64,000 nt of DNA from an uncultured Bacteroidota bacterium. Lineage in GTDB: Bacteria; CLD3; SB21. The notes under the pieces are model-generated. The model made no database searches. It saw only the letters and a program-made list of their open reading frames with translations, and was not told the DNA's origin. The DNA lies in assembly GCA_964602985.1 (NCBI GenBank), contig CAZRTJ010000007.1, positions 15,094 to 79,093 on the forward strand, read 5' to 3'. Shown here piece by piece: positions 982 to 60,758 of the stretch (positions are counted from its first letter, which is position 1; each line of letters begins with the position of its first letter). A program made the position numbers and the translations under genes.

Positions 982-1673
982 TACTTGCGAAACTCCCGTT
1001 GCGCTTGTTCGTACAGCGGTGTCCATACCGGATTCCCATACTCCGCCTTGTCGAGTGCGAATCGAGGATCGATTTTCAGGGCGGACAGAAACGCCTGCCT
1101 GGCCTCTTCGGGGCGCTTCAGCAATGCGTAGGAAAAAGCAAGCAACTTGCACGCCTGTACTCGATCTGGAACGGCGGCATCCAAGCGTTGGGCCACCAGG
1201 GTCAGATAGGAAAGGGCCGCTTCGTACTTGCGCTCCTTGTAGTGGCGCTGTCCCATCTGCAGCAACTCGGCGACGGGTAGTCGACGCAGACTGGCCAAGG
1301 ATCGGGCTCGTTCGTACGCGGGCATCCACGTTGGATTCCCCATTTCCGCGGATTCCAGCGCAAAGAGAGAATCCAGCTCGTATGCGCGTCCGAATTCCAT
1401 TTCCGCCAGTGTGTCTCTGCGCTGAATGGCGAAGACAAAAGCACGAACTTTGTGCGCAACGGTCTTTTGGCGCGCGGCAGCGTGCGGCGACTGAGTGAGG
1501 CTGTCCAGCGTCGCGAGGGCACGATCGTATTCACGAGATTTATAAGACGTGAGTCCGCGTTCGAGTAGCGGGTTCATGTCGGGAGTCCTCTTAGCGGAGC
1601 GCATCGCACAACTCGCAATGGTCCACGTGGCGGCAATTGTCCATAACCATCGTGTGAATCTACTTAAACTCAT
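981..1673 (-). CDS. TPR-like lipoprotein with two duplicated ~100-aa modules
   Basis: Signal ending in TIASC (lipobox-like); helical repeats; repeated motif EMGNPTWMPAYERAR / EYGNPVWTPLYEQAQ. Confidence 0.75.
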   Translation of the reverse strand: MSLSRFTRWLWTIAATWTIASCAMRSAKRTPDMNPLLERGLTSYKSREYDRALATLDSLTQSPHAAARQKTVAHKVRAFVFAIQRRDTLAEMEFGRAYELDSLFALESAEMGNPTWMPAYERARSLASLRRLPVAELLQMGQRHYKERKYEAALSYLTLVAQRLDAAVPDRVQACKLLAFSYALLKRPEEARQAFLSALKIDPRFALDKAEYGNPVWTPLYEQAQREFRK

Positions 1674-3813
1674 GTTGCAAGGTCGTCGTCGTTCCCGCCT
1701 TTACGGTGATCATTTTCCGGACGGGCGCAAAGGCAGGGTTCTCCAGTTGAATTTCGTACGTTCCTGGTTCCAGTGCGAGATTATCCAGGGGCGGTGTGGC
1801 GCCCTGATTGCGGCCATTCACAAACACAGTCGCCCATGGATCGACCAACAGCCGAACGATTCCAATCGAAGCCTGAAGCGACACGTGCGTCTTGGCCTCC
1901 CGGTTTTCGTCGACGAGCACGCGCTTGACTGAGAACAGTTGACCCTTTTGAATCCGGACCAGATGAACGCCTGCGGGGAAGCGATCATCCCGAAATGGGG
2001 TCACACCGATTCGTTTGCCGCCGGTGTATATCTCTGCGCCGGGAGGATCGCTGGAAACAACCAACGCGCCGAAAATGGGTTCAAGGGAAATCGTTGGACG
2101 AAGGGTGTCTTGGTCGTTGATTTGCAGAGGCCGGCTCAGGGAACGGAATCCTGTTTTCTGGAAAGTGACCTCGTGATTTCCGACGGGGATCATCGCAATT
2201 CCAGAGTTGCGTGTGGGCCGGTACGCGATTCCCTCGATGAGAATCTCCGCACCCTGAGGTTGCACACCGGCCATGGACAGGGCGCCTTTTCGGAAATCCA
2301 AGACGGGTCGCAACTTCCGCTCACCGCGTTTGCGCAAATCCAATTCGAGCGTCTTGTTGAGATAATTATCCCGACTAAACAGCAACGTGTGTTTGCCGGA
2401 CGGGAAGGGGATTCTATGGAGCGGTGTGTAGCCGATCAAACGTCCCGTGGTCGTCAAGACCCGCACCACCTCGGGCACTGACGTGACTGTGAGATAAGCG
2501 GTATCGATCCCTTCGGGTATGCGCACCGGGGCGAGTTGAAGTTCGATTTCGAAGTCCTTGTTCTCATGTTCAGCGAAGAGAAGTCTCGTCTTGTACGGCC
2601 GGTAAGCTTCATGAGACACGACCAATTCATATTCACCGGCGGGGATGTCGTTCCATTCCACTTTCTGATTGCGGATCTCCCGGGGAAGAGAATCCAACAT
2701 AACCGTTCCTTCGAGGATATTGGTTCGCAAAGTCAGGGAGGCCGTTCCTCCCGGCAACAGTTTCTTTTTCTCGCCGGTGGGACGAAGGAAAACGTATCCG
2801 ACCGCCAGTAGAAGCGCGACGGTCCCGCCGACAACCCAGGGATGTTTCCACCAGGATGGTTTGGCTGATCCGGACGGCTTGTCTGCCGCGGCGGTCATGA
2901 TCATCGTTGCCTGCGTAGGATCGTTTAGGATCATCGTCGCCTGGACGTCGGCAGCCGACATCACCTGCGTCTCGCTCATACTGGTCGATTTCAGGTGTCG
3001 ATGGGAGACGATATCCGCGGCCATTTCGGAGGCCGTCTGGTATCGATCGGCCGGATTCTTGGCCACGGCTTTTTGAATGATCAATCCAAATTGCGCGGGT
3101 GCAGACATGTTGACGACGGAGAGAGGCGTAGGATTCTCATGAACGACGCGGTACATCACCGTGGTGATGTTGTCTCCGGGAAAGGCCTTTTCGCAGGTGA
3201 GCAATTCGTACAGGACAGCCCCCGCGGAAAAAATATCCGTCCGATGGTCTATCAACTTTCCTGTGATTTGTTCGGGGGACATGTAGCTGGGGGTTCCTAC
3301 CACCATTCCGGTCATTGTAGCGGTTGAGGAGGAGAATTTGGCGATGCCGAAATCGGTAATCTTTGCGACGTTGGCCGTGGTGAGTATGATGTTTGCCGGT
3401 TTGATGTCGCGGTGAATAACGCCCTTCTTGTGCGCATAGTCCAGGCCTTCACAAACCTGCGTCATGATGTGGACGATATCGTCAATCGAGAAAGGATGTT
3501 TCTCCGCGATCAGCGTACTCAGCGGAAGGCCGTCGAGATATTCCATCGCGAAGTAGGCCAGGCCGTTTTCTTCTCCATAATTATAAATCTGAACGATGTT
3601 GGAATGAGAAAGAAGTTCGGCGGATTTCGCTTCTTGCACGAAGCGACGCTTGAAGTCGTTTCGTTGTTCTTCCGACAGCGCCGGATTGGCTCGCAAAGTC
3701 TTGATGGCAACGGATTTGCCGGTCGTTCCATCCAAGCCTTTGTAGACGGTTCCCATGGCCCCCTCGCCAAGAACATCCTCAATCCGGTACGGCCCAATGT
3801 GAGTGGGAGTCAT
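1660..3813 (-). CDS. Membrane Ser/Thr protein kinase (Hanks type) with C-terminal PEGA repeats
   Basis: LGEGAMGTVY, VAIK, HRDIKPAN, DFG, GTPSYMSPEQ; one TM helix; PEGA repeats (VVSSDPPGAEIY...IGVTP). Start set at MTPTHIGPY (3813). Confidence 0.95.
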   Translation of the reverse strand: MTPTHIGPYRIEDVLGEGAMGTVYKGLDGTTGKSVAIKTLRANPALSEEQRNDFKRRFVQEAKSAELLSHSNIVQIYNYGEENGLAYFAMEYLDGLPLSTLIAEKHPFSIDDIVHIMTQVCEGLDYAHKKGVIHRDIKPANIILTTANVAKITDFGIAKFSSSTATMTGMVVGTPSYMSPEQITGKLIDHRTDIFSAGAVLYELLTCEKAFPGDNITTVMYRVVHENPTPLSVVNMSAPAQFGLIIQKAVAKNPADRYQTASEMAADIVSHRHLKSTSMSETQVMSAADVQATMILNDPTQATMIMTAAADKPSGSAKPSWWKHPWVVGGTVALLLAVGYVFLRPTGEKKKLLPGGTASLTLRTNILEGTVMLDSLPREIRNQKVEWNDIPAGEYELVVSHEAYRPYKTRLLFAEHENKDFEIELQLAPVRIPEGIDTAYLTVTSVPEVVRVLTTTGRLIGYTPLHRIPFPSGKHTLLFSRDNYLNKTLELDLRKRGERKLRPVLDFRKGALSMAGVQPQGAEILIEGIAYRPTRNSGIAMIPVGNHEVTFQKTGFRSLSRPLQINDQDTLRPTISLEPIFGALVVSSDPPGAEIYTGGKRIGVTPFRDDRFPAGVHLVRIQKGQLFSVKRVLVDENREAKTHVSLQASIGIVRLLVDPWATVFVNGRNQGATPPLDNLALEPGTYEIQLENPAFAPVRKMITVKAGTTTTLQHEFK

Positions 3814-3920
3814 GTGTTGAACCTGGTCGCCATGCAGCAAAAAACTTATTGCAAAGGCGGGCCAATAGCAAGTGACGAAGCGGTTGCATCCTACCGGGAG
3901 TACGGTATATTCGTCTCTCG

Positions 3921-4775
3921 ATGGGCATGGATCGTGATCTTGCAGAAGGGTATCGAGTTTGTCACCGGATCGCGCGGGAGAGGCGTGAGAATTTCCTGGT
4001 CCTGGGACCTTTCACTCGCCCGGTCCTGCGAAAGAGCCTGGCGGCCTTGTATGCATACCTGCGTGTGTCGGACGACATCGCCGATGCCAACGGTGCGGTC
4101 GCAGAAAAGCTGAATCGCCTCCTCCAATGGGAAGCGTCGGTGCGCAGTTGCACCCGCGGAACGCCCCGTCATCCAATCCTCAAGGCGTTGCAAGACACGA
4201 TTCGTCGGCACGATCTGCCCATGGACATTGTGCTGGGTCCGCTGCAGGCGTTCAAGGTGGACCTGCTGAAGAGCCGGTACAGGACATTTTCGGAGTTGGA
4301 GGAATATTGCCGTTGGTCGGCCAATCCCGTGGGGGAACTGATCCTGCGAGTCTACGGTTACCATACCCAACCCTCGTGGAAGTCGTGCCTGCAGGCGTCG
4401 GACGCCATCTGTACGGCCCTCCAACTGGTCAACCATCTTCAGCACCTACTGCGCGACCGCTCGCTAAATCGGTTGTACTTCCCACTGGATGAGATGAACG
4501 GATTCACGGAAGACGACTGGATTCACGGCCGCACGGGCAACGGCTTTCCTGAGTTTCGCCTGTCCCAGCTGACGCGCATTCGCGCGCTTCTGACGGCAGG
4601 CCGTCCACTGATGTCTCTGACGAAGGGTTTGCTCTCTCGATACGTCAGAACGGTGTGGAACGCGGCCCACATGCTCGCAGACAAGATCGAAGTTCATGAT
4701 TTCGCTGGCTTCCCGGACGGGCCGGTTCGGACAAAACTCGATGCAATGAAATTGATTTGGCGGTCCTTCACATGA
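3921..4775 (+). CDS. hpnC: Squalene synthase HpnC
   Basis: RENF...LYAYLRVSDDIAD, YCRWSANPVGELIL, SDAICTALQLVNH; first gene of a hpnCDE cluster. Confidence 0.85.
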   Translation: MGMDRDLAEGYRVCHRIARERRENFLVLGPFTRPVLRKSLAALYAYLRVSDDIADANGAVAEKLNRLLQWEASVRSCTRGTPRHPILKALQDTIRRHDLPMDIVLGPLQAFKVDLLKSRYRTFSELEEYCRWSANPVGELILRVYGYHTQPSWKSCLQASDAICTALQLVNHLQHLLRDRSLNRLYFPLDEMNGFTEDDWIHGRTGNGFPEFRLSQLTRIRALLTAGRPLMSLTKGLLSRYVRTVWNAAHMLADKIEVHDFAGFPDGPVRTKLDAMKLIWRSFT

Positions 4776-5599
4776 TTACACCGGAGACGCGAAAGAGCCA
4801 TTTTTACCTGCCCATGCTGACGCTGCCGTTGGATCGACGCCAGGCCCTTTTGTCAGTCTATGCTTTTTGCCGACACGCGGACGATCTGGCGGACACGGCA
4901 AAAATTAGCGCAGAAGAAAGAGTTCATTTGTTGTGCGAGTTGGAGCAGAAATTCCGACAGACGTGGCGAGAAGGCACAGGCGGTGGATGGTTGCACGCAG
5001 TGGCGGTGGCGGCAAGGCAATACGATCTGCCGTGGGAGTGGTTTCAGGACTTTCTTTGCGGGATTCAAGGAGACATTGTGGGCTGGCGGCTTCGTACGGA
5101 TAACGACGTACGTGAGTATTGTCGCAAAGTCGCCGGGACGGTGGGGTTGATGAGCATTCGCATCATGGGCCGGCCGGAGGCTGAGGACTATGCGGTGGGA
5201 TTGGGTGAGGCGCTACAACGCACGAACATCCTTCGCGACTTTCTGGAGGACACACAACGCGGTCGAGTTTACTTCTCCGAAGAGCGACTGGAACGGTTTG
5301 GTTTGACACCCGATGCGGTTCTGCAAAATCCGGATACCCGTCAAACGTTACAACTGCTTCACGACGAGTGTATGCGAGTCGAGAAGCTCTATGACGCGTT
5401 GGAAAGGACCTATTCTGTACACCGGGCGAAGTCTTTGTTGTCCGCACGATTGATGCACGGGATTTACAAATACGTTTTCGATAGGATCTGCACGAACCCG
5501 GGATTGGTTTTTACCAAGCGCATCCGCATGAGTCGTTGGCGGCAGATGCAGACGATCAGCCGGATCGTCTTCAGAGAGTGGGGTCTGGGTTGGTCGTGA
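4772..5599 (+). CDS. hpnD: Presqualene diphosphate synthase HpnD
   Basis: SHFY...VYAFCRHADDLAD, YCRKVAGTVG, LQRTNILRDFLED..RGRVY; ATGA overlap with hpnC. Confidence 0.85.
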   Translation: MITPETRKSHFYLPMLTLPLDRRQALLSVYAFCRHADDLADTAKISAEERVHLLCELEQKFRQTWREGTGGGWLHAVAVAARQYDLPWEWFQDFLCGIQGDIVGWRLRTDNDVREYCRKVAGTVGLMSIRIMGRPEAEDYAVGLGEALQRTNILRDFLEDTQRGRVYFSEERLERFGLTPDAVLQNPDTRQTLQLLHDECMRVEKLYDALERTYSVHRAKSLLSARLMHGIYKYVFDRICTNPGLVFTKRIRMSRWRQMQTISRIVFREWGLGWS

Positions 5600-6795
5600 T
5601 CATCGGAGCCGGTGTGTGCGGACTGGCCACCGCATCGATGCTGGTCAAAGCAGGAGTCGAGTGCACGCTTGTGGAAGCCGGGTCGCGACCGGGAGGGCGG
5701 TTGCACTCGTTCCTCGATCACGCTTCGGGCCGGACCTTGGACAACGGTCAGCACGTTTTGGTCGATGCCTGCCAAGAGACGTTGGATTGGTTAGGTGAGA
5801 TCGGTGTGGCTGACTTTCCATTTGATCGCGTAACTTCCATCCCATTTCGTTCGACGACCGGCCGACAAGGTGTCCTGACGACCATGCACTCGCTGAGCCT
5901 TTTCACCGGATTGCTGGGTTTTGGATTACTGCCAATATCCGACCGCCTTCAGACGATTCTTCACTTCGTGCAATTACGTCGCGTACATGCGTCGTCATTG
6001 CGAACAGCGTTGCATGGATTTGGCGCATCCGGCGAGAGCATGCGGTACGTATGGGAACCCCTGTGCCGGGCTTTTTTCAGCCGAGACCTGGAGGAAGTGG
6101 ACGTTGTTGATTTCTCCCGACTTCTCGACGAATTTGTTCGACGCCCGACGCTGTTGATGCCGACAAAATCTCTGGAGGACACATTCATCCGTCCGGCGAT
6201 GACTTTTCTGACGCGGAATAGGGTACGAATTCGGTACGGTTCACGCGTAAGGAAATGGGTGGTTCAGAACGGGTTCGTCCGCCGAATTCTGTTGTCGTCT
6301 GAAAATGACATTCGATGCGACATCGTTGTTTCAACAATCCCTCCGCGATGCCTGGCAGAGATTGATGCCAATCCGATGGAAAGTCGTTCCTCGGCGATCG
6401 TATCGGTTTATTTTTGGTGCGACCATTTGGAAGCGCCTCCCGCGACGGCGCTGGTAGACTCCGCAGGACAGTGGCTGTTCAACAAAGGAGGCGGATTGTA
6501 TCAGGTCACCATCAGTCGCGCGGACCGATGGCTCGACTTGGCGAATGAGGAATTGATGGCACTCTTGGTCCAGGAACTGAACCAATGTGGAATCGCTGTT
6601 CCACACGGCGTGCGATATCGCGTGATCCGCACACGTCAGGCGATTTACCATGGAGTTGGCGCGTGCGCGTCGTATGCCAATCTACACGTCGGTGGAGACT
6701 GGACGAACACGGGTTTGCCTGGGTCGATCGAGAGCGCCGTTCGGAGTGCGCGTCAAATCACGAAGAACATCCTGCAGGGAGACATCGAATGCTAA
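5590..6795 (+). CDS. hpnE: Hydroxysqualene dehydroxylase HpnE (FAD-dependent oxidoreductase)
   Basis: VIIGAGVCGLATA Rossmann, GGRLHSF, DNGQHVL, GDWTNTGLPGSIESAVRS; start inferred (TTG 5590 or GTG 5596). Confidence 0.88.
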   Translation: MVVIIGAGVCGLATASMLVKAGVECTLVEAGSRPGGRLHSFLDHASGRTLDNGQHVLVDACQETLDWLGEIGVADFPFDRVTSIPFRSTTGRQGVLTTMHSLSLFTGLLGFGLLPISDRLQTILHFVQLRRVHASSLRTALHGFGASGESMRYVWEPLCRAFFSRDLEEVDVVDFSRLLDEFVRRPTLLMPTKSLEDTFIRPAMTFLTRNRVRIRYGSRVRKWVVQNGFVRRILLSSENDIRCDIVVSTIPPRCLAEIDANPMESRSSAIVSVYFWCDHLEAPPATALVDSAGQWLFNKGGGLYQVTISRADRWLDLANEELMALLVQELNQCGIAVPHGVRYRVIRTRQAIYHGVGACASYANLHVGGDWTNTGLPGSIESAVRSARQITKNILQGDIEC

Positions 6796-48393: not shown

Positions 48394-48901
48394 AAAACGA
48401 AATCCCTGGCTGCCGTACCTCGCCATTCTGGCGATTCTGCTGATTTGGTTTGTATACAATCAGTTCAGCGGGAAACAGTATGAAGTGCAAATCCTTCCTC
48501 TCTTTGACATCAAACCCGACAAGGTGACTCGCGTTGTGATTTCCAAAGATGGCGAACGAGTCACCCTTGTCCGCATGGACTCCACCTGGACTTTTGCCGA
48601 GCCGGACACGGGACGGCCGGCCGAATTCAGGATCGAACAATTCGAGAAAGATGTGCTCCGCGGTGAACGGGAAGGATCGATTACGTCCGATACAGCCGCG
48701 TACCGCTCATACGGAGTCGCGGACGATGCGATGCATTTGGAAATTTGGGCGGGTGACAATAAAGTGGGCGGGGTCCGGGTCGGGCGATCCGGAAAAGACT
48801 TCAGCTTGGAATATGTGCGATACGACGAGGATCCACATGTCTATCCAAGCCGTCAGCGAATGCTCAACAGAGTCGGATCGACCGCAGACTGGTGGCGATG
48901 A
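48386..48901 (+). CDS. DUF4340-like protein
   Basis: N-terminal TM; W...P...R, YG, VGRSG...YVR; typical position after GldG. Confidence 0.75.
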   Translation: MDKKRNPWLPYLAILAILLIWFVYNQFSGKQYEVQILPLFDIKPDKVTRVVISKDGERVTLVRMDSTWTFAEPDTGRPAEFRIEQFEKDVLRGEREGSITSDTAAYRSYGVADDAMHLEIWAGDNKVGGVRVGRSGKDFSLEYVRYDEDPHVYPSRQRMLNRVGSTADWWR

Positions 48902-53699: not shown

Positions 53700-53741
53700 G
53701 TTTCCTCCATGGTAACCGCATCTTGTCGATGCGGGATAGTG

Positions 53742-53812
53742 CTGGAACGCAGGGATTCGAACCCCGATTAATGGATCCAGAGTCCACTGTCCTACCGTTG
53801 GACGACGTTCCA
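53742..53812 (-). tRNA. tRNA-Gln (anticodon CTG)
   Basis: TGGAACG-TC-GTCCAACGGTAGGAC-A-GTGGA-CTCTGGA-TCCAT...GGGTTCGAATCCC-TG-CGTTCCA-G; U1:A72 as in Gln tRNAs; CCA not encoded. Confidence 0.96.
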
Positions 53813-53863: not shown

Positions 53864-54081
53864 CCCCCAACCCCTCCCATCTCCCTTCCCTTACGCACAT
53901 GGAAATCTCGGGTAGGTCAAATCCGAGTCGCGCAACCCCTCCCATCTCCCTCCCTTACGCGCACCGAATCAGGCGATACGTAAAATCTGACTCGCGTAAG
54001 GGGAGGGCAGGGTGGGGTTATATCCGCCTCACGCACATATGATTGCTTGGCGCAAGATCAACATCGCGTAAAGGGGACGGC
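53864..54081. repeat. Palindromic (REP-like) repeat cluster 1
   Basis: Left arms AACCCCTCCCATCTCCCT(T)CCCTTACGC at 53869 and 53934, right arm CGCGTAAGGGGAGGGCAGGGTGGGGTT at ~53993-54019, conserved tail. Confidence 0.9.
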
Positions 54082-54263
54082 AACGTCGGATTGGGTGGGT
54101 TAGGTTGCACGGACAAGGCTTGCGCATCCCGCTATCGAGTAGCGGCAACCTTCGATTCAAATCCTGTCTTCTTATGCGAACCGTCGCAAAAAGGCTTGTT
54201 CTCGCTGCGTCCAAGGGGCCCGTTGTACTCACAGTCAATTTCATGTCCGGTATCGCCGGCCCC

Positions 54264-54617
54264 TCAGTGGTGAATTGTAATGGAATCGCGCGTCAATTCG
54301 ACCACATGGCTCGTTTTTAGAGCGTCCGTCACTGCCCTAAGGTGGTCCGAGAAAATCTGCATCAGCTGACTGTTCCGTATATTGCCTGTCGTCACAAGAA
54401 GAAGCTTGTAGGGCTGTCGGTGAAGAAGGAATGTGTCCAAGAAATCGTGGTCCTTCGTAATAACGACTCTCCGTTGTTGCATTGACAATCTTATGATCCG
54501 GGCGTCAGTCGTCAAATTCTTCTGAGGTAGCTCAAGCGTATGGATTGCATCATGTGCCTCCTCCCTAAGGAACTCGGCAAGCCGCAAGGGAAGTTGAGCA
54601 TCAACCACAAACTTCAT
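54264..54617 (-). CDS. DUF5615 PIN-like toxin (VapC45-like)
   Basis: MKFVVDAQLP..LA..L, HDA.H, D..I, RVVITKDHDF. Confidence 0.9.
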   Translation of the reverse strand: MKFVVDAQLPLRLAEFLREEAHDAIHTLELPQKNLTTDARIIRLSMQQRRVVITKDHDFLDTFLLHRQPYKLLLVTTGNIRNSQLMQIFSDHLRAVTDALKTSHVVELTRDSITIHH

Positions 54618-54856
54618 GAAACAAGCCTATGCACCGTCTTCACACGAGTGAGACTTGAAGCATAGGACAAGGCGGCCAGGATGTCTTGTCTGTCGAGGTC
54701 AGGATAATCATTGAGAATCTCGTCAATGGTCATCCCGGAACTGAGCAGTTCGAGGATATTCTCGACCGGATATCGCAGGTTGCGAATAGTTGGCTTGCCG
54801 TGGCAAACGTCAGAATTGATTGTGATTCTATTCAGTAAATTTCTTTTCTTGGCCAT
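54614..54856 (-). CDS. DUF433 antitoxin (VapB45-like)
   Basis: RITINSDVCHGKPTIRNLRYPVENILELLSSG.T..EIL.DYP.L...DI.AAL.YA; GGAGG RBS; start 54856; ATGA overlap with the toxin gene. Confidence 0.93.
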   Translation of the reverse strand: MAKKRNLLNRITINSDVCHGKPTIRNLRYPVENILELLSSGMTIDEILNDYPDLDRQDILAALSYASSLTRVKTVHRLVS

Positions 54857-54921
54857 ATCAAACCTCCACATGCAACATAAGGAAGTGAACGGACAAAGAC
54901 AAAAGACCGTTTTTTTGGTCC

Positions 54922-55515
54922 AACCCCTCCCATCTCCCTCCCTTACGCGCATGGAAATGTCGGGTAGGTAGAATCTGAGTCGCGTAACCCCTCCCATCTC
55001 CCTTCCCTTACGCACATGGAAATGTCGGGTAGGTAGAATCTGAGTTGCGTAACCCCTCCCATCTCCCTCCCCTTACGCGCATGGAAATGTCGGTCAGGCA
55101 GAATCCGAGTCGCGTCAACCCTCCCATCTCCCTCCCCTTACGCGCACCGAATCAGGCGATACGTAAAATCTGACTCGCGTAAGGGGAGGGCAGGGTGGGG
55201 TTATATCCGCCTCACGCACACCTATGATTGCTTGGCGCAAGATCAACATCGCGTAAAGGGGACGGCGGTGCGATGTTGCGCGGCCGGTGCATTCGACAAG
55301 GAACGAACATTCGTTCCTCTACACTGTCCTTGAGCTTTTGCCTTTACGGATGACATGTCTGCGTCAACCCTCCATCTCCCTCCCCTTACGCGCATGGAAA
55401 TGTCGGTCAGGCAGAATCTGAGTTGCGTAACCCCTCCCATCTCCCTCCCCTTACGCGCACCGAATCAGGCGATACGTAAAATCTGACTCGCGTAAGGGGA
55501 GGGCGGGGTGGGGTT
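54922..55515. repeat. Palindromic repeat cluster 2 (three tandem ~65-nt half units, full hairpin, spacer, half unit, full hairpin)
   Basis: Left arms at 54922, 54986, 55051, 55117, 55366, 55429; right arms ending 55202 and 55515. Confidence 0.92.
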
Positions 55516-55532
55516 GGCAGATCAACTCGTGG

Positions 55533-55565
55533 AAAAATAAAAAACCCCGACCGAAGTCGGGGTTT
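55533..55565 (-). terminator. Rho-independent terminator of the Ig-like lipoprotein gene
   Basis: Minus strand AAACCCCGAC-TTCG-GTCGGGG-TTTTTTATTTTT; C(UUCG)G tetraloop; 21 nt after the stop. Confidence 0.92.
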
Positions 55566-55586
55566 AATGGCAGAAGAAAAACTAGA

Positions 55587-57470
55587 TTAGAACGTAAGCG
55601 TGTCGCCATTCGGATCGATACCGTTACCGGCCAAATCCGTCAAACCATTTCCAATATCCAGAACATCGCCACCGTCGATTGAACCGTCTGTGACGGTCAG
55701 CCGGACTACGTACTGGTTCGTGAAAATTCCAACGCTGGTATAACCGTAGTACACTGCCCCCGAAATGACCGTCGCAACTCCGCCGCCGGCATTATCGATG
55801 CTGTAGTTACCAATGGTTTCGGCATCGGCTTCATCGATGGGCTCGCTGAACGCGACGTACACGTAATCACCGTTTCCGGCAAGAACATCACCCTCTGTAT
55901 TAAGGTCCCAAGTTCCATCGAGAACGGGCTCGACAGCATCGTCCACTGTGATCGTGTTGCTTGCGGCTCCGACGACCAGATTCACGCTGACCGCACGAAC
56001 CTGATAGGAAACATCCAGCGCGCGACGTGGGTCGTTACCGCCCGTATGCAGTGCGCCTGTGTTGTCCGTGTAGTAAGTCTCAGTAGTACGGTCGATTTCG
56101 TCAAACGCCGTCTCACCAGCGGCTCGTCGGTAAATGATGAATTCTTTGACCGCGATCGAGCTCTCGTCGATCGTCCACTCGAGAGTTACGTTACCGCCAG
56201 TATAATCGAGATCGACTGACGTCGGATCTTTCGATACGACTGGAGCGGCCGGCGCAGTCGCCGAGCCCTGGGTCGTGAAGTCGAGGGCCTCGAAGTCACC
56301 CGTGATATCAGCATTGTCCACGGTACCATTCCCAGCTCCGTCCGTGAAATTGCTGATCGCGGATGAGAGATCGAAGGTGTAATCCGCATTCGGAGCAAGA
56401 GCCGTTCCGGGTGTGAAGGTCAGAGTAGTATTTCCGTTGGACCAGGCGGCGGTAAAACCAATCTCGGCAAAGGACTTCTTCAGACCATTGTAGGTAAAAG
56501 AAATATCGTCGAGGAAGGTGTTATTGCCGATCGGGAGAGCCGTATTGGTATACGCATTCTGTTTGATTGGCTCACTGAAGGTAAACACAATCGCCGTTGC
56601 GGTGGCGACGTCAGCGTCGTTTTCCGGAGTGATCGACGTCACGAAGGGCTCAGTATTGTCGCGATTCGACAATGCCAACCGCTCGGCCGAGACCTGAGTC
56701 AGCAGCATCGGATCCTGCCCGCAAGTAAGGCTCACGGAGATGTTATCCGTGAAGATTTTCGTCGCATCCCATGCTTCGATCGTCAAACCGCTGCGGCCGT
56801 TTTCGACGTTCGTGAACGTGTAGTTGCCGTTTGCGTCTGTCGTCGTCGACTTGACCACATACGTGTTACCGATGCCGTTGCTGTGCTTCAGGAGAACTGT
56901 AGCACCAGCCGCAGCCGCGTATGTTTGTCCGTCCACAACCTGACCCATGATGGTCGTATTCAAGGCGCCGACTTCGATGTCCGTCATGCTGGACACGATT
57001 CCATCAACCGGCGTGTCCGCACCAGAGCCAGACTCGCCGTCTGTGCCAGCGCTGTTATCCCCGTCATTGAGATCGGCAAAATACACTTCGACGTAGTCCT
57101 CGTAAATGTCCGGGTACTTCAGCGAATCCGGCTTATTCTTGTTATAATCCCGGAAGTCCATCAGAACCTCATATCCATCCCAGTACGTCCAATCGCCGTT
57201 GCTGTAAGTGGCTTCACTGGTGACGGGCACATCACGGAATACGAATTCACCGTTTGAATTCGTCGTGACCTCGGACTTGCCAGCCAGGTTGACCTTCACG
57301 CCCGCAATAGGGTGTCCGGAACAGCGATCGAGCACGCGGCCCAGAACCGTTCCCAGGAAATTCTTCGTTGACGGATTCACGCTGGCGATGTCTTTGTTGA
57401 CATCGTCGCAACCCAGGCCGCCCACGAAGAGGCTCAGCGCAACCAGCGCCAAGAACTTGACGTTCTTCAT
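55587..57470 (-). CDS. Large acidic surface lipoprotein with carboxypeptidase-regulatory-like and Ig-like (Big) domains
   Basis: Lipobox GLGC; GRVLD..SGHPIAGVKV..TNSNGEF.F and GQVVDG..TTTDANGNYTF; DNTEPFVTSITP..I.FTFSEPI and VAFSEPID..TDLAGN (Big_5-like); D/T/N/G-rich; GAGGAGG RBS. Confidence 0.85.
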   Translation of the reverse strand: MKNVKFLALVALSLFVGGLGCDDVNKDIASVNPSTKNFLGTVLGRVLDRCSGHPIAGVKVNLAGKSEVTTNSNGEFVFRDVPVTSEATYSNGDWTYWDGYEVLMDFRDYNKNKPDSLKYPDIYEDYVEVYFADLNDGDNSAGTDGESGSGADTPVDGIVSSMTDIEVGALNTTIMGQVVDGQTYAAAAGATVLLKHSNGIGNTYVVKSTTTDANGNYTFTNVENGRSGLTIEAWDATKIFTDNISVSLTCGQDPMLLTQVSAERLALSNRDNTEPFVTSITPENDADVATATAIVFTFSEPIKQNAYTNTALPIGNNTFLDDISFTYNGLKKSFAEIGFTAAWSNGNTTLTFTPGTALAPNADYTFDLSSAISNFTDGAGNGTVDNADITGDFEALDFTTQGSATAPAAPVVSKDPTSVDLDYTGGNVTLEWTIDESSIAVKEFIIYRRAAGETAFDEIDRTTETYYTDNTGALHTGGNDPRRALDVSYQVRAVSVNLVVGAASNTITVDDAVEPVLDGTWDLNTEGDVLAGNGDYVYVAFSEPIDEADAETIGNYSIDNAGGGVATVISGAVYYGYTSVGIFTNQYVVRLTVTDGSIDGGDVLDIGNGLTDLAGNGIDPNGDTLTF

Positions 57471-57638
57471 CGTAACCTCCTCTAAGTTAAAGGGTAATGT
57501 TTAGGGAAAATATTCACGACAGAGAGTAGAAACAGAATTTTTAAATCAAGTAGTAACAATTACTTAATTTGCCTCACCGTTGTTGGTTTCGTATACGTTT
57601 CATAATGCGACGAACCAGTTCGCATTGTAGGGCACGGG

Positions 57639-57667
57639 AGAATAAGCAAAAGTCGACGCCATGTCAA
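57639..57667 (-). promoter_or_regulatory. Putative sigma70 promoter of the Ig-like lipoprotein gene
   Basis: Minus strand TTGACA (57667-62), 17 nt, TATTCT (57644-39); followed by a ~160-nt AT-rich leader. Confidence 0.65.
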
Positions 57668-57707
57668 GCCCATGTTCTTTTTTTCTTAGGTTTATTACTG
57701 GACCCAC

Positions 57708-58048
57708 AACCCCTCCCATATCCCTCCCCTTACGCACTTGAAAGGTCAGGGACATAAAATCCGAGTTGCGTAAGGGGAAGGTCGGGGTGGGGTTGCGTCC
57801 GCTTACGCACATCGATGATTGCTTGGCGCAAGATCAACATCGCACAAAGGGGATGGCAGCGCGGTGTTGCGGCGCTGGCGCATTCACAAAGAGCGATCAT
57901 TCGTGCCTCCGGAGTTACAGCGTCCTTGGGCTTTCGCGTTTACGGATGACATGTCTGCATCAACCCCTCCCATATCCCTCCCCTTACGCGCACCGAATCA
58001 GGCGATACGTAAAATCTGACTCGCGTAAGGGGAGGGCAGGGTGGGGTT
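57708..58048. repeat. Palindromic repeat cluster 3 (hairpin-tail-spacer-hairpin, homologous to 55117-55515)
   Basis: Left arms at 57708 and 57962; shared tail GATTGCTTGGCGCAAGATCAACATCGC and TTTACGGATGACATGTCTGC. Confidence 0.9.
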
Positions 58049-58065
58049 GGCAGATCAACGCGGGG

Positions 58066-58100
58066 AAAAACAAGAACCCCGACCGAAGTCGGGGTTCTTG
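58066..58100 (-). terminator. Second copy of the UUCG-loop terminator, downstream of the truncated paralog
   Basis: CAAGAACCCCGAC-TTCG-GTCGGGGTTCTTG-TTTTT on the minus strand. Confidence 0.88.
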
Positions 58101-58117
58101 ATCCAAGGATATATGGA

Positions 58118-58254
58118 TTAGAACGTGAACGTGTTGGCGTTCGTATCCATCGCATTGCCCGCCAAATCCGTGACGCCGGATAGGGTGAGGACTTCCGTCG
58201 CGACAACGGACGCATTATCCACCGTCAGACGGACACAGTAGCCGTATCCGAATC
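58118..58254 (-). pseudogene. 3'-terminal fragment of a paralog of the 55587-57470 Ig-like lipoprotein
   Basis: My translation: GFGYGYCVRLTVDNASVVATEVLTLSGVTDLAGNAMDTNANTFTF* versus NQYVVRLTVTDGSIDGGDVLDIGNGLTDLAGNGIDPNGDTLTF*; both end ACGTTCTAA; no start; abuts repeat DNA at 58255. Confidence 0.85.
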
Positions 58255-58478
58255 CAGGGACATAAAATCCGAGTTGCGTAAGGGGAAGGTCGGGGTGGGG
58301 TTGTATCCCCTTGCGCGCACGGAACTGTCGCGTAGGTAGAATCTGAGTCGCGTAACCCCTCCCATCTCCCTCCCCTTACGCGCACCGAATCAGGCGATAC
58401 GTGAAATCTGACTCGCGTAAGGGGAGGGCAGGGTGGGGTTATATCCGCCTCACGCACACCTATGAGTGCTTGGCGCAA
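58255..58478. repeat. Palindromic repeat cluster 4 (begins mid-unit)
   Basis: 58255-58303 is identical over 49 nt to 57747-57795; degenerate half unit; full hairpin 58354-58440 plus tail. Confidence 0.9.
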
Positions 58479-58602
58479 ATTCATCATGGAAATTCTCCAC
58501 CAAACAGTATTAGCTTCGACTGCCAGTAGGCAGCTATCGACATTCCGTGCGCTGGCGAAAGGGTAACGCACTTCATCAATGAATTTTTGAAATGGTAAAC
58601 GT

Positions 58603-59820
58603 ATGAGAACCGCAGAAATCGTGGAAAGCCTGGCCCAACGGACCGAATCCAAGATCGTTTTGCTCGTCCTGGATGGGTTGGGCGGCATTCGGACGCAGAA
58701 GGCGCCGAAGACTGAACTGGAGTTGGCCAATATCCCTAATCTGAATCAACTCGCAAGGAATGGAGTGTGCGGTCGGATCACGCCCGTTTCGCCCGGAGTT
58801 ACGCCGGGAAGCGGGCCGGCTCATTTCAGCCTCTTCGGATATGATCCCACCGAGGAATCCATCCAGATCGGACGGGGTGCGCTCGAGGCACTGGGATTGG
58901 GCATGGATCTCAAAGCCGGAGACGTGGCGACCCGCTGTAACTTTGCGACCATCGACTCGCAAAGCCGTCTGACGGATCGCAGGGCGGGCAGAATCCCCAC
59001 CGAGGAATGTGTCCGATTGTGTCAATTGCTAACCAGGTCCCTCCGTCGCATCGACGACGTGGACGTCGTGATCGAACCCGGAGAGCAGTATCGCTTTGTC
59101 GTCGTCTTCAAGGGACCGGGTCTGGGTGGAGAAATCGAGGACACGGATCCACAGGTGACGGGCGTACCGGCCCTGTCGGCCGTTCCGCGCAACGAGGCCT
59201 CGCGCAAAATGGCCTCCCTTGCAGACCGCTTCATCGCGCAGGCAAACGCCCTGCTCGCAAAGGAGACGAAAGCCAATTCCATCCTCATGCGCGGCTTTTC
59301 TGCCATGCCACACGTGCGATCCATGTCTGACCGGTGGAAATTGCGCCCGGCCTGTATAGCGACGTATCCGCTGTACCGCGGGGTCGCCCGAGTCGTCGGG
59401 ATGGAAATTCTGCAAGCGGGGACGGAGATTGCAGACGAATTCGCCGCACTGGAAAAGCACTGGAATGATTTCGATTATTTCTTCATTCACATCAAGAAGA
59501 CCGACTCCTACGGCGAAGACGGCAATCCGCAGGGAAAGATCAAGATTCTGGAGGAGGTTGACGGCCACATCCCGATGATTGAAAAACTGAACCCAGCCGT
59601 GATCATGGTCACGGGCGACCACTCCACGCCGCCGCCGATGAAAAGCCATTCGTGGCATCCGGTGCCGTTCTTGTTGAAAGCGGAACACTGCGGCATCGAC
59701 GACGCGGCGGCATTTGCAGAAGCGGAATGCTCGAAGGGTCAGTTGGGTGTCTTCCCATCCTATCACATCACGGAACTGGCCCTCGCCAATGCCGGCAAGC
59801 TGAAGAAGTTCGGCGCTTGA
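58603..59820 (+). CDS. apgM: 2,3-bisphosphoglycerate-independent phosphoglycerate mutase (ApgM type)
   Basis: VLLVLDGLGG, TPGSGPAHFSLFGYDP, GRGALEALG, HIKKTDSYGEDG, VTGDHSTP, SHSWHPVP. Confidence 0.93.
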   Translation: MRTAEIVESLAQRTESKIVLLVLDGLGGIRTQKAPKTELELANIPNLNQLARNGVCGRITPVSPGVTPGSGPAHFSLFGYDPTEESIQIGRGALEALGLGMDLKAGDVATRCNFATIDSQSRLTDRRAGRIPTEECVRLCQLLTRSLRRIDDVDVVIEPGEQYRFVVVFKGPGLGGEIEDTDPQVTGVPALSAVPRNEASRKMASLADRFIAQANALLAKETKANSILMRGFSAMPHVRSMSDRWKLRPACIATYPLYRGVARVVGMEILQAGTEIADEFAALEKHWNDFDYFFIHIKKTDSYGEDGNPQGKIKILEEVDGHIPMIEKLNPAVIMVTGDHSTPPPMKSHSWHPVPFLLKAEHCGIDDAAAFAEAECSKGQLGVFPSYHITELALANAGKLKKFGA

Positions 59821-60758
59821 TGAAATCGGCTCGTCAGGTGGCCCGGCAGTTGTGGCGCGAGAAGATTCGGCGATGGCGCAGGGAGCGCAGGCGTTTGCGG
59901 TCGCGCGTGACGGAGGAAGCCATTCATGAATTTCGCGTAGCCACGCGTCGCCTGCGGGTTGCGCTGGGAGTATTTGCACCGCTGACGGCTCACCCGCCAG
60001 TCATCCGCGATCTGCGCAAGCGGCTTCGTGCGGCGGCATCCGTTCTCGGTGCGGCAAGAGATGCGACGGTCCACGGACAACACCTCACGCGTCACCTGAA
60101 CTCTCTCCATCTGCAAGAGGTCCTGGCGGATTGGATGTCCATCCGTGCGCATGAAAAGGCCAAGTTATTCCAAGCCGCGGCCGACATGGACACCGCAGAA
60201 GCCGAACGACGTCTGGAAGCCTTCGAGCGATATCCGCACTTGTGTCATGAGTCCGGATCGGGAGGGGAGTACCTTTTGCACCGCACGCGTGAGGCGTTGC
60301 AACCGGTGGCCTTGTTTGAGAATTTTCGCGAATCGGTTGGCGATCCGCACCGGATGCATGATTTGCGGATTCGAATCAAACGATTTCGCTACGCGTTGGA
60401 AATGCTGAATTCCATCCGGGAAAACGAGCTGGAGGAAATGGTTCGGACCACGAAACGATTGCAGGATCATCTGGGCATTATCCACGATCTGGACACGCTG
60501 GCAGACCGTATCCGTGCCGACGTGTCGTGGCTGAATGACGAGTCGCGCGTGGCGGACATCCTGCGCACGCCCGCCGATGACGACGACATGCGACGACTGA
60601 CACTCGAACTGTCCGTGAAACAAACCGGAGTCGTGCGCGACGCGTTGTTACGCCTCTTCACGGCGATGATGGAGGAGCGACAAGAACACGTGAAGGCGTT
60701 GCTGTCGGACTGGGCGCCGGCGATGAGTCAGTTTTCCAAAATCATGGAGGATGAATGA
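59820..60758 (+). CDS. CHAD domain protein (polyphosphate-binding)
   Basis: EAIHEFRVATRRLR, LGAARD..V, MHDLRIRIKRFRYALE, LQDHLG.IHD; start reset to 59820 (TGATG). Confidence 0.9.
   Translation: MKSARQVARQLWREKIRRWRRERRRLRSRVTEEAIHEFRVATRRLRVALGVFAPLTAHPPVIRDLRKRLRAAASVLGAARDATVHGQHLTRHLNSLHLQEVLADWMSIRAHEKAKLFQAAADMDTAEAERRLEAFERYPHLCHESGSGGEYLLHRTREALQPVALFENFRESVGDPHRMHDLRIRIKRFRYALEMLNSIRENELEEMVRTTKRLQDHLGIIHDLDTLADRIRADVSWLNDESRVADILRTPADDDDMRRLTLELSVKQTGVVRDALLRLFTAMMEERQEHVKALLSDWAPAMSQFSKIMEDE

Follow-up and report, generated by a model that had tools for sequence, protein, structure and literature searches.

A promoterless paralog fragment beside a surface-type lipoprotein gene is probably the remnant of a decayed tandem array in an uncultured Bacteroidota bacterium

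Why does the 3' end of a second gene stand silent upstream of a complete lipoprotein gene, and why is each followed by the same terminator and the same repeat? This arrangement occurs in a 64,000-nucleotide stretch of contig CAZRTJ010000007.1 (positions 15,094 to 79,093; assembly GCA_964602985.1) from an uncultured Bacteroidota bacterium. The whole stretch is called the window here, and all coordinates are window positions. A preliminary description had offered three readings: a tandem array contracted by repeat-associated deletion, an assembly collapse, and a programmed system that moves silent C-terminal cassettes into the expressed gene. Our analysis favoured the first. The locus is likely a decayed tandem array of paralogous lipoprotein genes, shaped by deletion and by recombination between conserved flanks, and overlaid by a local repeat. 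This reading draws on a tandem pair of full paralogs in a relative, the place of the fragment in a separate old paralog clade, a putative deletion endpoint inside a hairpin loop, and a 508-bp segment that a sister strain lacks.

The full gene (55587–57470, minus strand) encodes a 627-amino-acid protein of the surface-lipoprotein type. Its promoter and 5' leader (57471–57702, minus strand) contain a predicted sigma-70-like −35/−10 pair at 57667–57639. Downstream, the GGCAGATCAAC motif and an intrinsic terminator occupy 55517–55565 (minus strand). The terminator begins 21 nucleotides past the stop codon, with a stem at 55542–55565, a UUCG loop and a U-run (fold −11.5 kcal/mol, z −4.35). The silent fragment (58118–58254, minus strand) comprises a stop codon and about 45 codons of another paralog. 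Its translation ends in GFGYGYCVRLTVDNASVVATEVLTLSGVTDLAGNAMDTNANTFTF before the stop; that of the longer stretch 58118–58300 (minus strand) ends in VPGFGYGYCVRLTVDNASVVATEVLTLSGVTDLAGNAMDTNANTFTF, of which 58118–58254 is the gene-derived portion. The fragment has no start codon. The ORF (open reading frame) list contained no ORF of at least 40 amino acids ending at 58118, and a promoter scan found no promoter-like site upstream, where the sequence before codon −45 is repeat. A spurious 91-amino-acid ORF spans the fragment, and its look-up for independent contigs returned no record. Downstream of the fragment, the GGCAGATCAAC motif and a second terminator lie at 58050–58100 (minus strand), with a 13-bp stem at 58071–58100 and a UUCG loop (−16.2 kcal/mol, z −5.33).

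The terminator scan gave CCCCGAC-UUCG-GUCGGGG plus a U-run for both terminators (55565–55542 and 58100–58071, minus strand). After each come GTTGATCTGCC, which is GGCAGATCAAC on the other strand, and a 93-nucleotide hairpin whose C-rich and G-rich arms carry G-quadruplex (G4) motifs. Between the two module copies, identity was 94.7% in this hairpin (H_a), 87.8% from GGCAGATCAAC to the terminator, 47.6% in the 21-nucleotide spacer between terminator and stop codon, and 62.5% in the coding 3' end. Farther from the genes, identity was 79.4% in a "C-element" and 76.8% in a further hairpin (H_b). The module thus occurs twice, once with the 627-amino-acid gene and once with about 45 codons joined to the middle of a repeat, exactly as the preliminary description had it. 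That description had also placed two repeat blocks within 55117–58478; the blocks are present, but they number four and extend beyond those limits.

The fragment does not resemble its neighbour most. In tblastn, residues 583–636 of the full-length protein P0007 matched it with 74.5% identity (E 3e-14). In pairwise alignments, 35 of 43 residues of the gene-derived part were identical to P0007 (81%), 32 of 43 to P0008, 25 of 40 to P0006, and 21 of 41 (51%) to P0001, the product of the adjacent gene. The gap between 51% and 81% rules out that the fragment arose by recent duplication of the neighbour's 3' end. The fragment belongs to a separate, anciently diverged paralog clade and is not a diverged copy of the neighbour. 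We named the C-terminal halves type A (the neighbour gene), type B (a third kind, described below) and type C (the fragment). Partial in-frame homology, the loss of start codon, promoter and remaining coding sequence, and intact tandem paralogs in related genomes identify the fragment as a silent relic of a tandem paralog. On its own it is an ordinary gene relic.

At 58254/58255, the fragment meets the second half of a hairpin loop, which is followed by its G-rich arm. About 6 nucleotides around GTCCCTG, read from the sequence, form a candidate microhomology at this junction. A 65-nucleotide direct repeat (D5) lies at 57747–57811 and 58255–58319, and its two copies are 92% identical. The fragment is missing in the sister strain L010 (Logan SRR26868042), whose sequence corresponds to the window minus exactly 508 bp between the D5 repeats. 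In L010, block-4-like DNA leads to one complete hairpin and then directly to the promoter.

L010 and a second sister strain, L018 (SRR34141493), are about 90% identical to the window in nucleotides. They share its promoter, N-terminal half, terminator and hairpin, and their C-terminal half is of the non-homologous type B. Compared with the window, L010 was about 90% identical in the N-terminal half, fell to about 55% over approximately 56700–55566, and returned to 95–97% from the terminator on. The proteins followed the same pattern, L010's P0003 having 92% identity to the window protein in the N-terminal half and 40% in the C-terminal half. L018 was 92.8% identical up to 56632, then carried the type-B half, and was 97.5% identical in the terminator and hairpin. 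The boundary of the swap, at about residues 233–279, coincides with a predicted low-confidence linker at residues 251–272. The C-terminal half of the expressed gene therefore appears to have been exchanged between strains within conserved flanks, on an evolutionary time scale. L001, an independent assembly of the window's own strain, had a 100% identical gene. As a separate observation, the promoter and leader region (57432–57731) was 98.7% identical to L010 (296/300), far more conserved than the coding DNA around it, though the adjoining apgM was 88.8% identical.

The same dimorphism was found in a second lineage with the gene order gene, zf-CDGSH, tRNA-Gln, TatA and gatA. There, L003 has type A (P0002), and L004, L005 and L006 have type B (P0004). 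The N-terminal halves of P0002 and P0004 were 90% identical and their C-terminal halves 43%. Flanks in this lineage were about 77% identical in nucleotides to each other and about 68% to the window. Across lineages, N-terminal halves shared 77–80%; C-terminal halves shared 82.5% within type A (P0001 and P0002), 67.7% within type B (P0003 and P0004), and 40–43% between A and B. Since both lineages contain A and B, these types predate the lineage split. The A–A identity of 82.5% is close to the N-half identity of 80.5%, so the alignments give no sign of recent lateral transfer of type A. No hairpin repeats were found in the lineage 2 loci, indicating that the A/B difference does not depend on them. 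The terminator stems tracked lineage and not cassette type: in lineage 1 the stem CCCCGAC/GTCGGGG stands behind A, B and the C fragment alike, including behind the full gene in L010 and L018, and lineage 2 has CCCCGGC or TCCCGGC. The lineage 2 contigs end 200–470 nucleotides upstream of the orthologous gene (L003, 1–222; L004, 1–199; L005 and L006, 1–469), and an assembly-breaking sequence, possibly another paralog, may lie there.

An intact tandem arrangement was observed in L002 (GCA_013359335.1), where two full paralogs, P0006 upstream and P0005, stand head to tail 330 nucleotides apart; L012 is arranged likewise. Of the two, P0006 matches the C-terminus of the fragment more closely. The N-terminal halves of the pair were 74% identical and the C-terminal halves 45%, and the N-terminal halves were about 60% identical to those of other lineages. 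This is the pattern that concerted evolution would leave in the conserved part. Within the window, tblastn with family proteins detected no family sequence beyond the full gene and the fragment. Of the comparisons proposed in the preliminary description, a search for more paralogs found none within the 64 kb and full family members, including the tandem pair, in relatives, and the C-termini did differ between sister strains, as A against B, within conserved flanks.

These observations can be arranged into a history. The ancestral unit would have consisted of a hairpin, a promoter, an N-terminal half, a variable C-terminal half, a UUCG terminator and a hairpin/C-element repeat. Its 5' part (promoter and two-domain N-terminal half) and its 3' flank would have stayed conserved, with old three-domain halves A, B and C between them. 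Homologous exchange across the conserved 5' and 3' parts, whether by unequal crossing-over, gene conversion or allelic replacement from relatives, would remove or replace C-terminal halves. The A/B difference may accordingly reflect differential paralog loss or allelic replacement. In the window's lineage, an illegitimate deletion of the microhomology type would have run from the upstream hairpin loop to codon −45 of a type-C gene, taking the promoter with it. It would have spared the relic's own terminator and repeat block, which now border the surviving type-A gene on its upstream side. In L010 the whole segment would have been lost cleanly, by homologous recombination of one 65-bp repeat with the other. 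The likeness of the terminator/hairpin flanks within a lineage could result from concerted evolution or from crossovers falling inside the flanks.

Several findings weigh against this history. No intact C-B-A or C-A array was found in the window's lineage, so the ancestral array is itself a reconstruction. Full-length type-C genes elsewhere (P0007) stand in a different context, between Hpt and an asparaginase gene. The fragment carries neither a frameshift nor an internal stop, hence it was either truncated recently or has been kept for some reason. The 508-bp segment, with its 65-bp direct repeats on both sides, would fit an insertion or a duplication too. In addition, simple decay does not explain the local concentration of hairpin/G4 repeats.

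These repeats form four blocks, each a composite of C-element and hairpin. Block 1 (53864–54110, plus strand) contains one C-rich arm unit, a full hairpin (53929–54020) and the start of a C-element. Block 2 (54916–55516, plus strand) contains three 65-nucleotide C-arm units, H_b (55111–55203), a C-element (55204–55362), one more C-arm unit and H_a (55424–55516). Block 3 (57703–58049, plus strand) is made up of H_b' (57703–57795, loop subtype 2), a C-element (57796–57956) and H_a' (57957–58049). Block 4 (58255–58487, plus strand) begins with the half loop and G-rich arm at the fragment junction (58255–58303, a direct repeat of 57747–57795) and continues with a degenerate unit, a full hairpin (58349–58441) and the start of a C-element. 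Single-arm units of 65 nucleotides occur in blocks 1 and 2, in tandem in the latter (TRF: period 65, 3.5 copies, 92% matches). A CRISPR reading of these periodic units was ruled out, as the "spacers" are themselves 85–92% alike.

The C-rich core was found nine times, against a chance expectation of zero in the window, and the G-rich arm seven times, all in a single orientation and within 53864–58441; the remaining 59 kb contained no repeat arms. The six full hairpins are all intergenic and fold at −23 to −29 kcal/mol (z −3.9 to −6.6). Canonical G4 motifs in the window number 16, on both strands, and 15 of them lie in the local repeat arms (53871–58438), the other being at 48766–48784. One, at 57710–57729 (minus strand), is near the promoter and is gone from the equivalent hairpin of L010, where a 10-nucleotide deletion removed the G4 motifs. 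The core CCCTCCCATMTCCCTYCCCTTACGC had no exact match in a one-genome-per-species collection or in JGI metagenome contigs. The Rfam search gave tRNA-Gln alone at gathering thresholds, with sub-threshold noise over the repeats at E<=1. The C-element, about 160 nucleotides long, lies between hairpins; besides its two full copies, partial copies were seen at 54020–54078 and 58441–58487. The full copies are 79% identical, share the invariant 29-mer ATGATTGCTTGGCGCAAGATCAACATCGC, contain small internal hairpins and have no Rfam match. GGCAGATCAAC resembles a shortened end of the C-element.

No recombinase, transposase or integrase gene was found among the ORFs of at least 220 amino acids at 1–40 kb; the 40–64 kb part was judged via the relatives' loci, which match most of it and whose called genes there are housekeeping genes without a recombinase. 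A RAYT gene was likewise absent among the window ORFs scanned. The repeat resembles REP/REPIN elements (PMC3116915, PMC3337134) in its extragenic position, in two inverted arms of about 28 nucleotides around a spacer that form a stable hairpin, and in singlet arms and ordered tandem arrays with flanking sequence, often just past terminators. The inverted arm doublet in extragenic DNA is present, but the dispersal of REP/REPIN elements was not seen within the window. All 16 arms lie within 4.6 kb, the arms are C-rich/G-rich G4 motifs, and the RAYT partner is missing from the ORFs scanned. The hairpin/G4 repeat is thus best described, from its sequence features, as what appears to be a lineage-specific, locally amplified REPIN-like element.

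Two further features show rearrangement beside these blocks. A relic of a zf-CDGSH gene (54141–54212, minus strand) corresponds to residues 43–66 of a 70-amino-acid protein that relatives encode at the same position (tblastn, 79% amino acid identity to the L003 copy, E 3e-10). The place of its 5' part is filled by a toxin-antitoxin-like pair (54264–54856, minus strand), composed of a DUF433 gene (54614–54856) and a DUF5615/PIN-like gene (54264–54617) with Pfam E values of 8e-26 and 1e-22, and absent from L003 and L004. The zf-CDGSH relic is the second 3'-only gene relic within this 4.6-kb locus, indicating that rearrangement here is recurrent, and a C-element/hairpin block again follows it. 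The repeats mark each rearrangement scar at the locus. Clustering at three scars (the paralog relic, the CDGSH relic and the toxin-antitoxin insertion) makes them a candidate local promoter of rearrangement. They may cause it by hairpin/G4 stalling or merely accumulate there; if they promote it, they probably do so only passively.

An insertion could have produced the same anatomy. The composite repeat, carrying 137 nucleotides of a type-C 3' end and a terminator, would have been moved or duplicated locally into the hairpin upstream of the promoter, creating the 65-bp direct repeat. The 508-bp segment does lie within such repeats, and L010 lacks it. Composites of C-element and hairpin are found in four places, among them sites beside unrelated genes (the toxin-antitoxin pair, the CDGSH relic and apgM), and full type-C genes of other genomes stand at a different locus. 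However, a 65-bp target duplication is unlike known transposition, and no transposase or recombinase was seen among the ORFs scanned or the relatives' called syntenic genes. Homologous deletion between the repeats yields the L010 arrangement equally well, and the tandem pair of L002 has its C-like gene upstream. We consider an insertion unlikely, and deletion from a tandem array remains the preferred account of the junction.

It is quite unlikely that the locus works as a modular exchange system for C-terminal halves, in which the promoter and N-terminal half on one side and the terminator and hairpin/G4 repeat on the other act as anchors, donor cassettes come from elsewhere in the genome or from relatives, and the 45-codon piece is a decayed example. 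If true, this would be a previously undescribed system of antigenic or phage-receptor variation outside pathogens.

The preliminary description's proposal of programmed, high-frequency variation, in which silent C-terminal cassettes with terminator and hairpin convert the expressed gene and hairpin/G4 sequences serve as initiators or anchors, fared poorly. The C-terminal half does differ between sister strains within conserved flanks, each of types A, B and C is followed in lineage 1 by the terminator, GTTGATCTGCC and the hairpin, and G4 motifs lie both upstream of the promoter and downstream of the gene. The layout also recalls Neisseria, with silent cassettes before the expressed gene, an upstream G4 and a 66-bp 3' repeat (PMC4023411). 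The sole silent piece, however, is 45 codons from the least variable end of the protein, it lacks a 5' homology segment, and no other cassette of the family occurs within the 64 kb. No long identical tract links it to the 3' end of the gene, which is 62.5% identical. L001 matches the window over the entire gene, and apart from P0003, which comes from another sample, a whole-database protein search found no second window-like N-terminal half. The dimorphism exists in lineage 2 without such repeats, the G4 motifs are gone from L010's upstream hairpin, and no recombinase was seen in the ORFs scanned. The A and B strains are about 10% different across the flanks, indicating that the exchange is old. 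Programmed variation is very unlikely on these grounds.

The pilE/pilS system of Neisseria (PMC4023411; PMC10094033) is a known parallel in layout: a promoterless partial copy upstream, a repeat of about 65 nucleotides 3' of both copies, and a G4 motif upstream of the promoter. In pilE/pilS, the G4 lies upstream and the 66-bp Sma/Cla repeat at the 3' end (PMC4023411). Here there is one 45-codon relic in place of a cassette repertoire, and it shares only the 3' flank with the expressed gene. No intra-strain variants were seen (L001 being the only comparison), the G4 is not conserved in L010, and the dimorphism occurs in repeat-free relatives. The organism, moreover, is an uncultured environmental member of the Bacteroidota/FCB group.

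An assembly artefact, in which a full type-C paralog or further units were collapsed or misjoined across repeats, deserved attention as the locus is repeat-rich, all short-read contigs of this and related strains break inside repeats (L001, L016, L017 and L018), and the number of 65-nucleotide units per block could easily be wrong. Independent apgM contigs also end inside block 4, 167 nucleotides upstream of apgM. Misjoins at repeats occur within shared sequence, whereas 58254/58255 joins unique coding DNA to repeat with an overlap of at most about 6–7 nucleotides. In addition, the protein database contained no full type-C protein with a lineage 1 N-terminal half. L001 and L018, which are different strains, both start at window position 57736, inside the arm variant CCCATATCCC. 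This 29-mer has exactly two copies in the window (57707–57735 and 57961–57989), and a break at such a sequence fits a real block 3; it also suggests that the L018 strain holds a second copy. A misassembly is most unlikely.

An integrase-free cassette array of the integron kind, in which the hairpins would be attC-like sites behind the fragment, the lipoprotein gene and the toxin-antitoxin pair, is barely credible: imperfect palindromes with AAC...GTT ends and bulged bases do follow each gene in one orientation, and the toxin-antitoxin pair does lie between two repeat blocks, but the lipoprotein gene has its own predicted promoter and the same syntenic position in repeat-free genomes, tandem C-arm units without a partner arm are unlike attC, the flanking heptamers, read from the sequence, fit RYYYAAC/GTTRRRY poorly, and no integrase was seen among the ORFs scanned. 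Site-specific recombination of the shufflon kind was ruled out together with the integron, there being no recombinase among those ORFs and a predicted promoter in front of the gene.

Tandem paralogs of surface proteins commonly evolve by birth and death while their conserved parts evolve in concert, as in paralogous adhesin genes of the outer membrane such as Helicobacter babA/babB. The present locus shares with that pattern a conserved 5' part and 3' flank, a divergent internal or C-terminal module, deletion relics, and tandem N-terminal halves closer within a genome than between genomes (74% vs about 60% in L002). It differs in exchanging an entire three-domain C-terminal half, in having no second full copy in the window, and in cassette types that are shared by lineages whose flanks are about 68% identical in nucleotides. 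The locus is a further example of known processes, namely tandem paralog decay, the diversification of a surface protein by modules, and repeats of the REPIN-like kind. Two of its features stand out. One is that the outer three domains, between conserved flanks, come in at least three old types (A, B and C) that are interchangeable and recur across lineages. The other is a repeat family whose core had no exact counterpart in either of the public DNA collections scanned and which is concentrated at one rearrangement-prone locus.

The 627-amino-acid protein begins with a signal peptide and a lipobox whose Cys21 is followed by DD, and continues with two CarboxypepD_reg domains, the linker at residues 251–272, Big_5, an FN3-like domain and a C-terminal Ig-like domain. 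The two CarboxypepD_reg domains and Big_5 were identified with Pfam (PF13620, 60.8 bits; PF13715, 44.5; PF13205, 39.1; all above the cut-offs). The GC-DD motif at the lipobox is invariant across the family alignment A2. The acidic residues that follow the lipobox cysteine are reminiscent of the lipoprotein export signal of Bacteroidetes (PMC5080379), so surface exposure can reasonably be proposed. An AlphaFold model built from eight family members (mean pLDDT 69.7) predicted five beta-sandwich domains and gave low confidence to the linker. A PDB fold search with this model returned generic Ig/FN3 domain strings and S-layer proteins only; neither the prediction nor the search offered a functional clue. 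In its Pfam domains, the acidic residues after the cysteine and the predicted beta-sandwich string, the protein is like other Bacteroidota Big_5/CarboxypepD_reg lipoproteins. The close family is small, with 17 proteins in a whole-database search with the full-length protein, from metagenome-assembled genomes of uncultured "Bacteroidota" and Ignavibacteriales. The wider architecture family comprised 143 clusters at E<=1e-30. Source records call a few cluster members '5-hydroxyisourate hydrolase-like protein (transthyretin family)' or 'Ig-like domain-containing protein'. The A/B/C pattern is what diversifying or frequency-dependent selection would be expected to produce in a surface structure, for instance one that phages use as a receptor, that grazers target or that works as an adhesin. 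The locus therefore offers a concrete site for studying how surface diversity is kept up in environmental bacteria.

Conserved genes bound the variable locus on both sides. Its downstream edge is tRNA-Gln(CTG) (53741–53812, minus strand; ARAGORN; Rfam 62.8 bits), in a region 87–88% identical in nucleotides to relatives. The upstream edge is apgM (58603–59820, plus strand), a cofactor-independent phosphoglycerate mutase gene identified with Pfam; its 88.8% identity refers to L010. A gene for a CHAD-domain protein follows at 59652–60758 (plus strand), where the longest ORF has 368 amino acids and a GTG start and overlaps the end of apgM by about 170 nucleotides. On the independent contig L016 (1385–2323) the gene encodes 312 amino acids, and the true start is probably further downstream. 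Far from the locus, 1660–3840 (minus strand) encodes a Ser/Thr protein kinase with C-terminal PEGA/CarboxypepD_reg-like domains. Beside it, 3921–6795 (plus strand) contains two genes of the squalene/phytoene synthase family and, after them, a flavin amine oxidoreductase gene, an arrangement like that of HpnC/HpnD/HpnE squalene synthesis.

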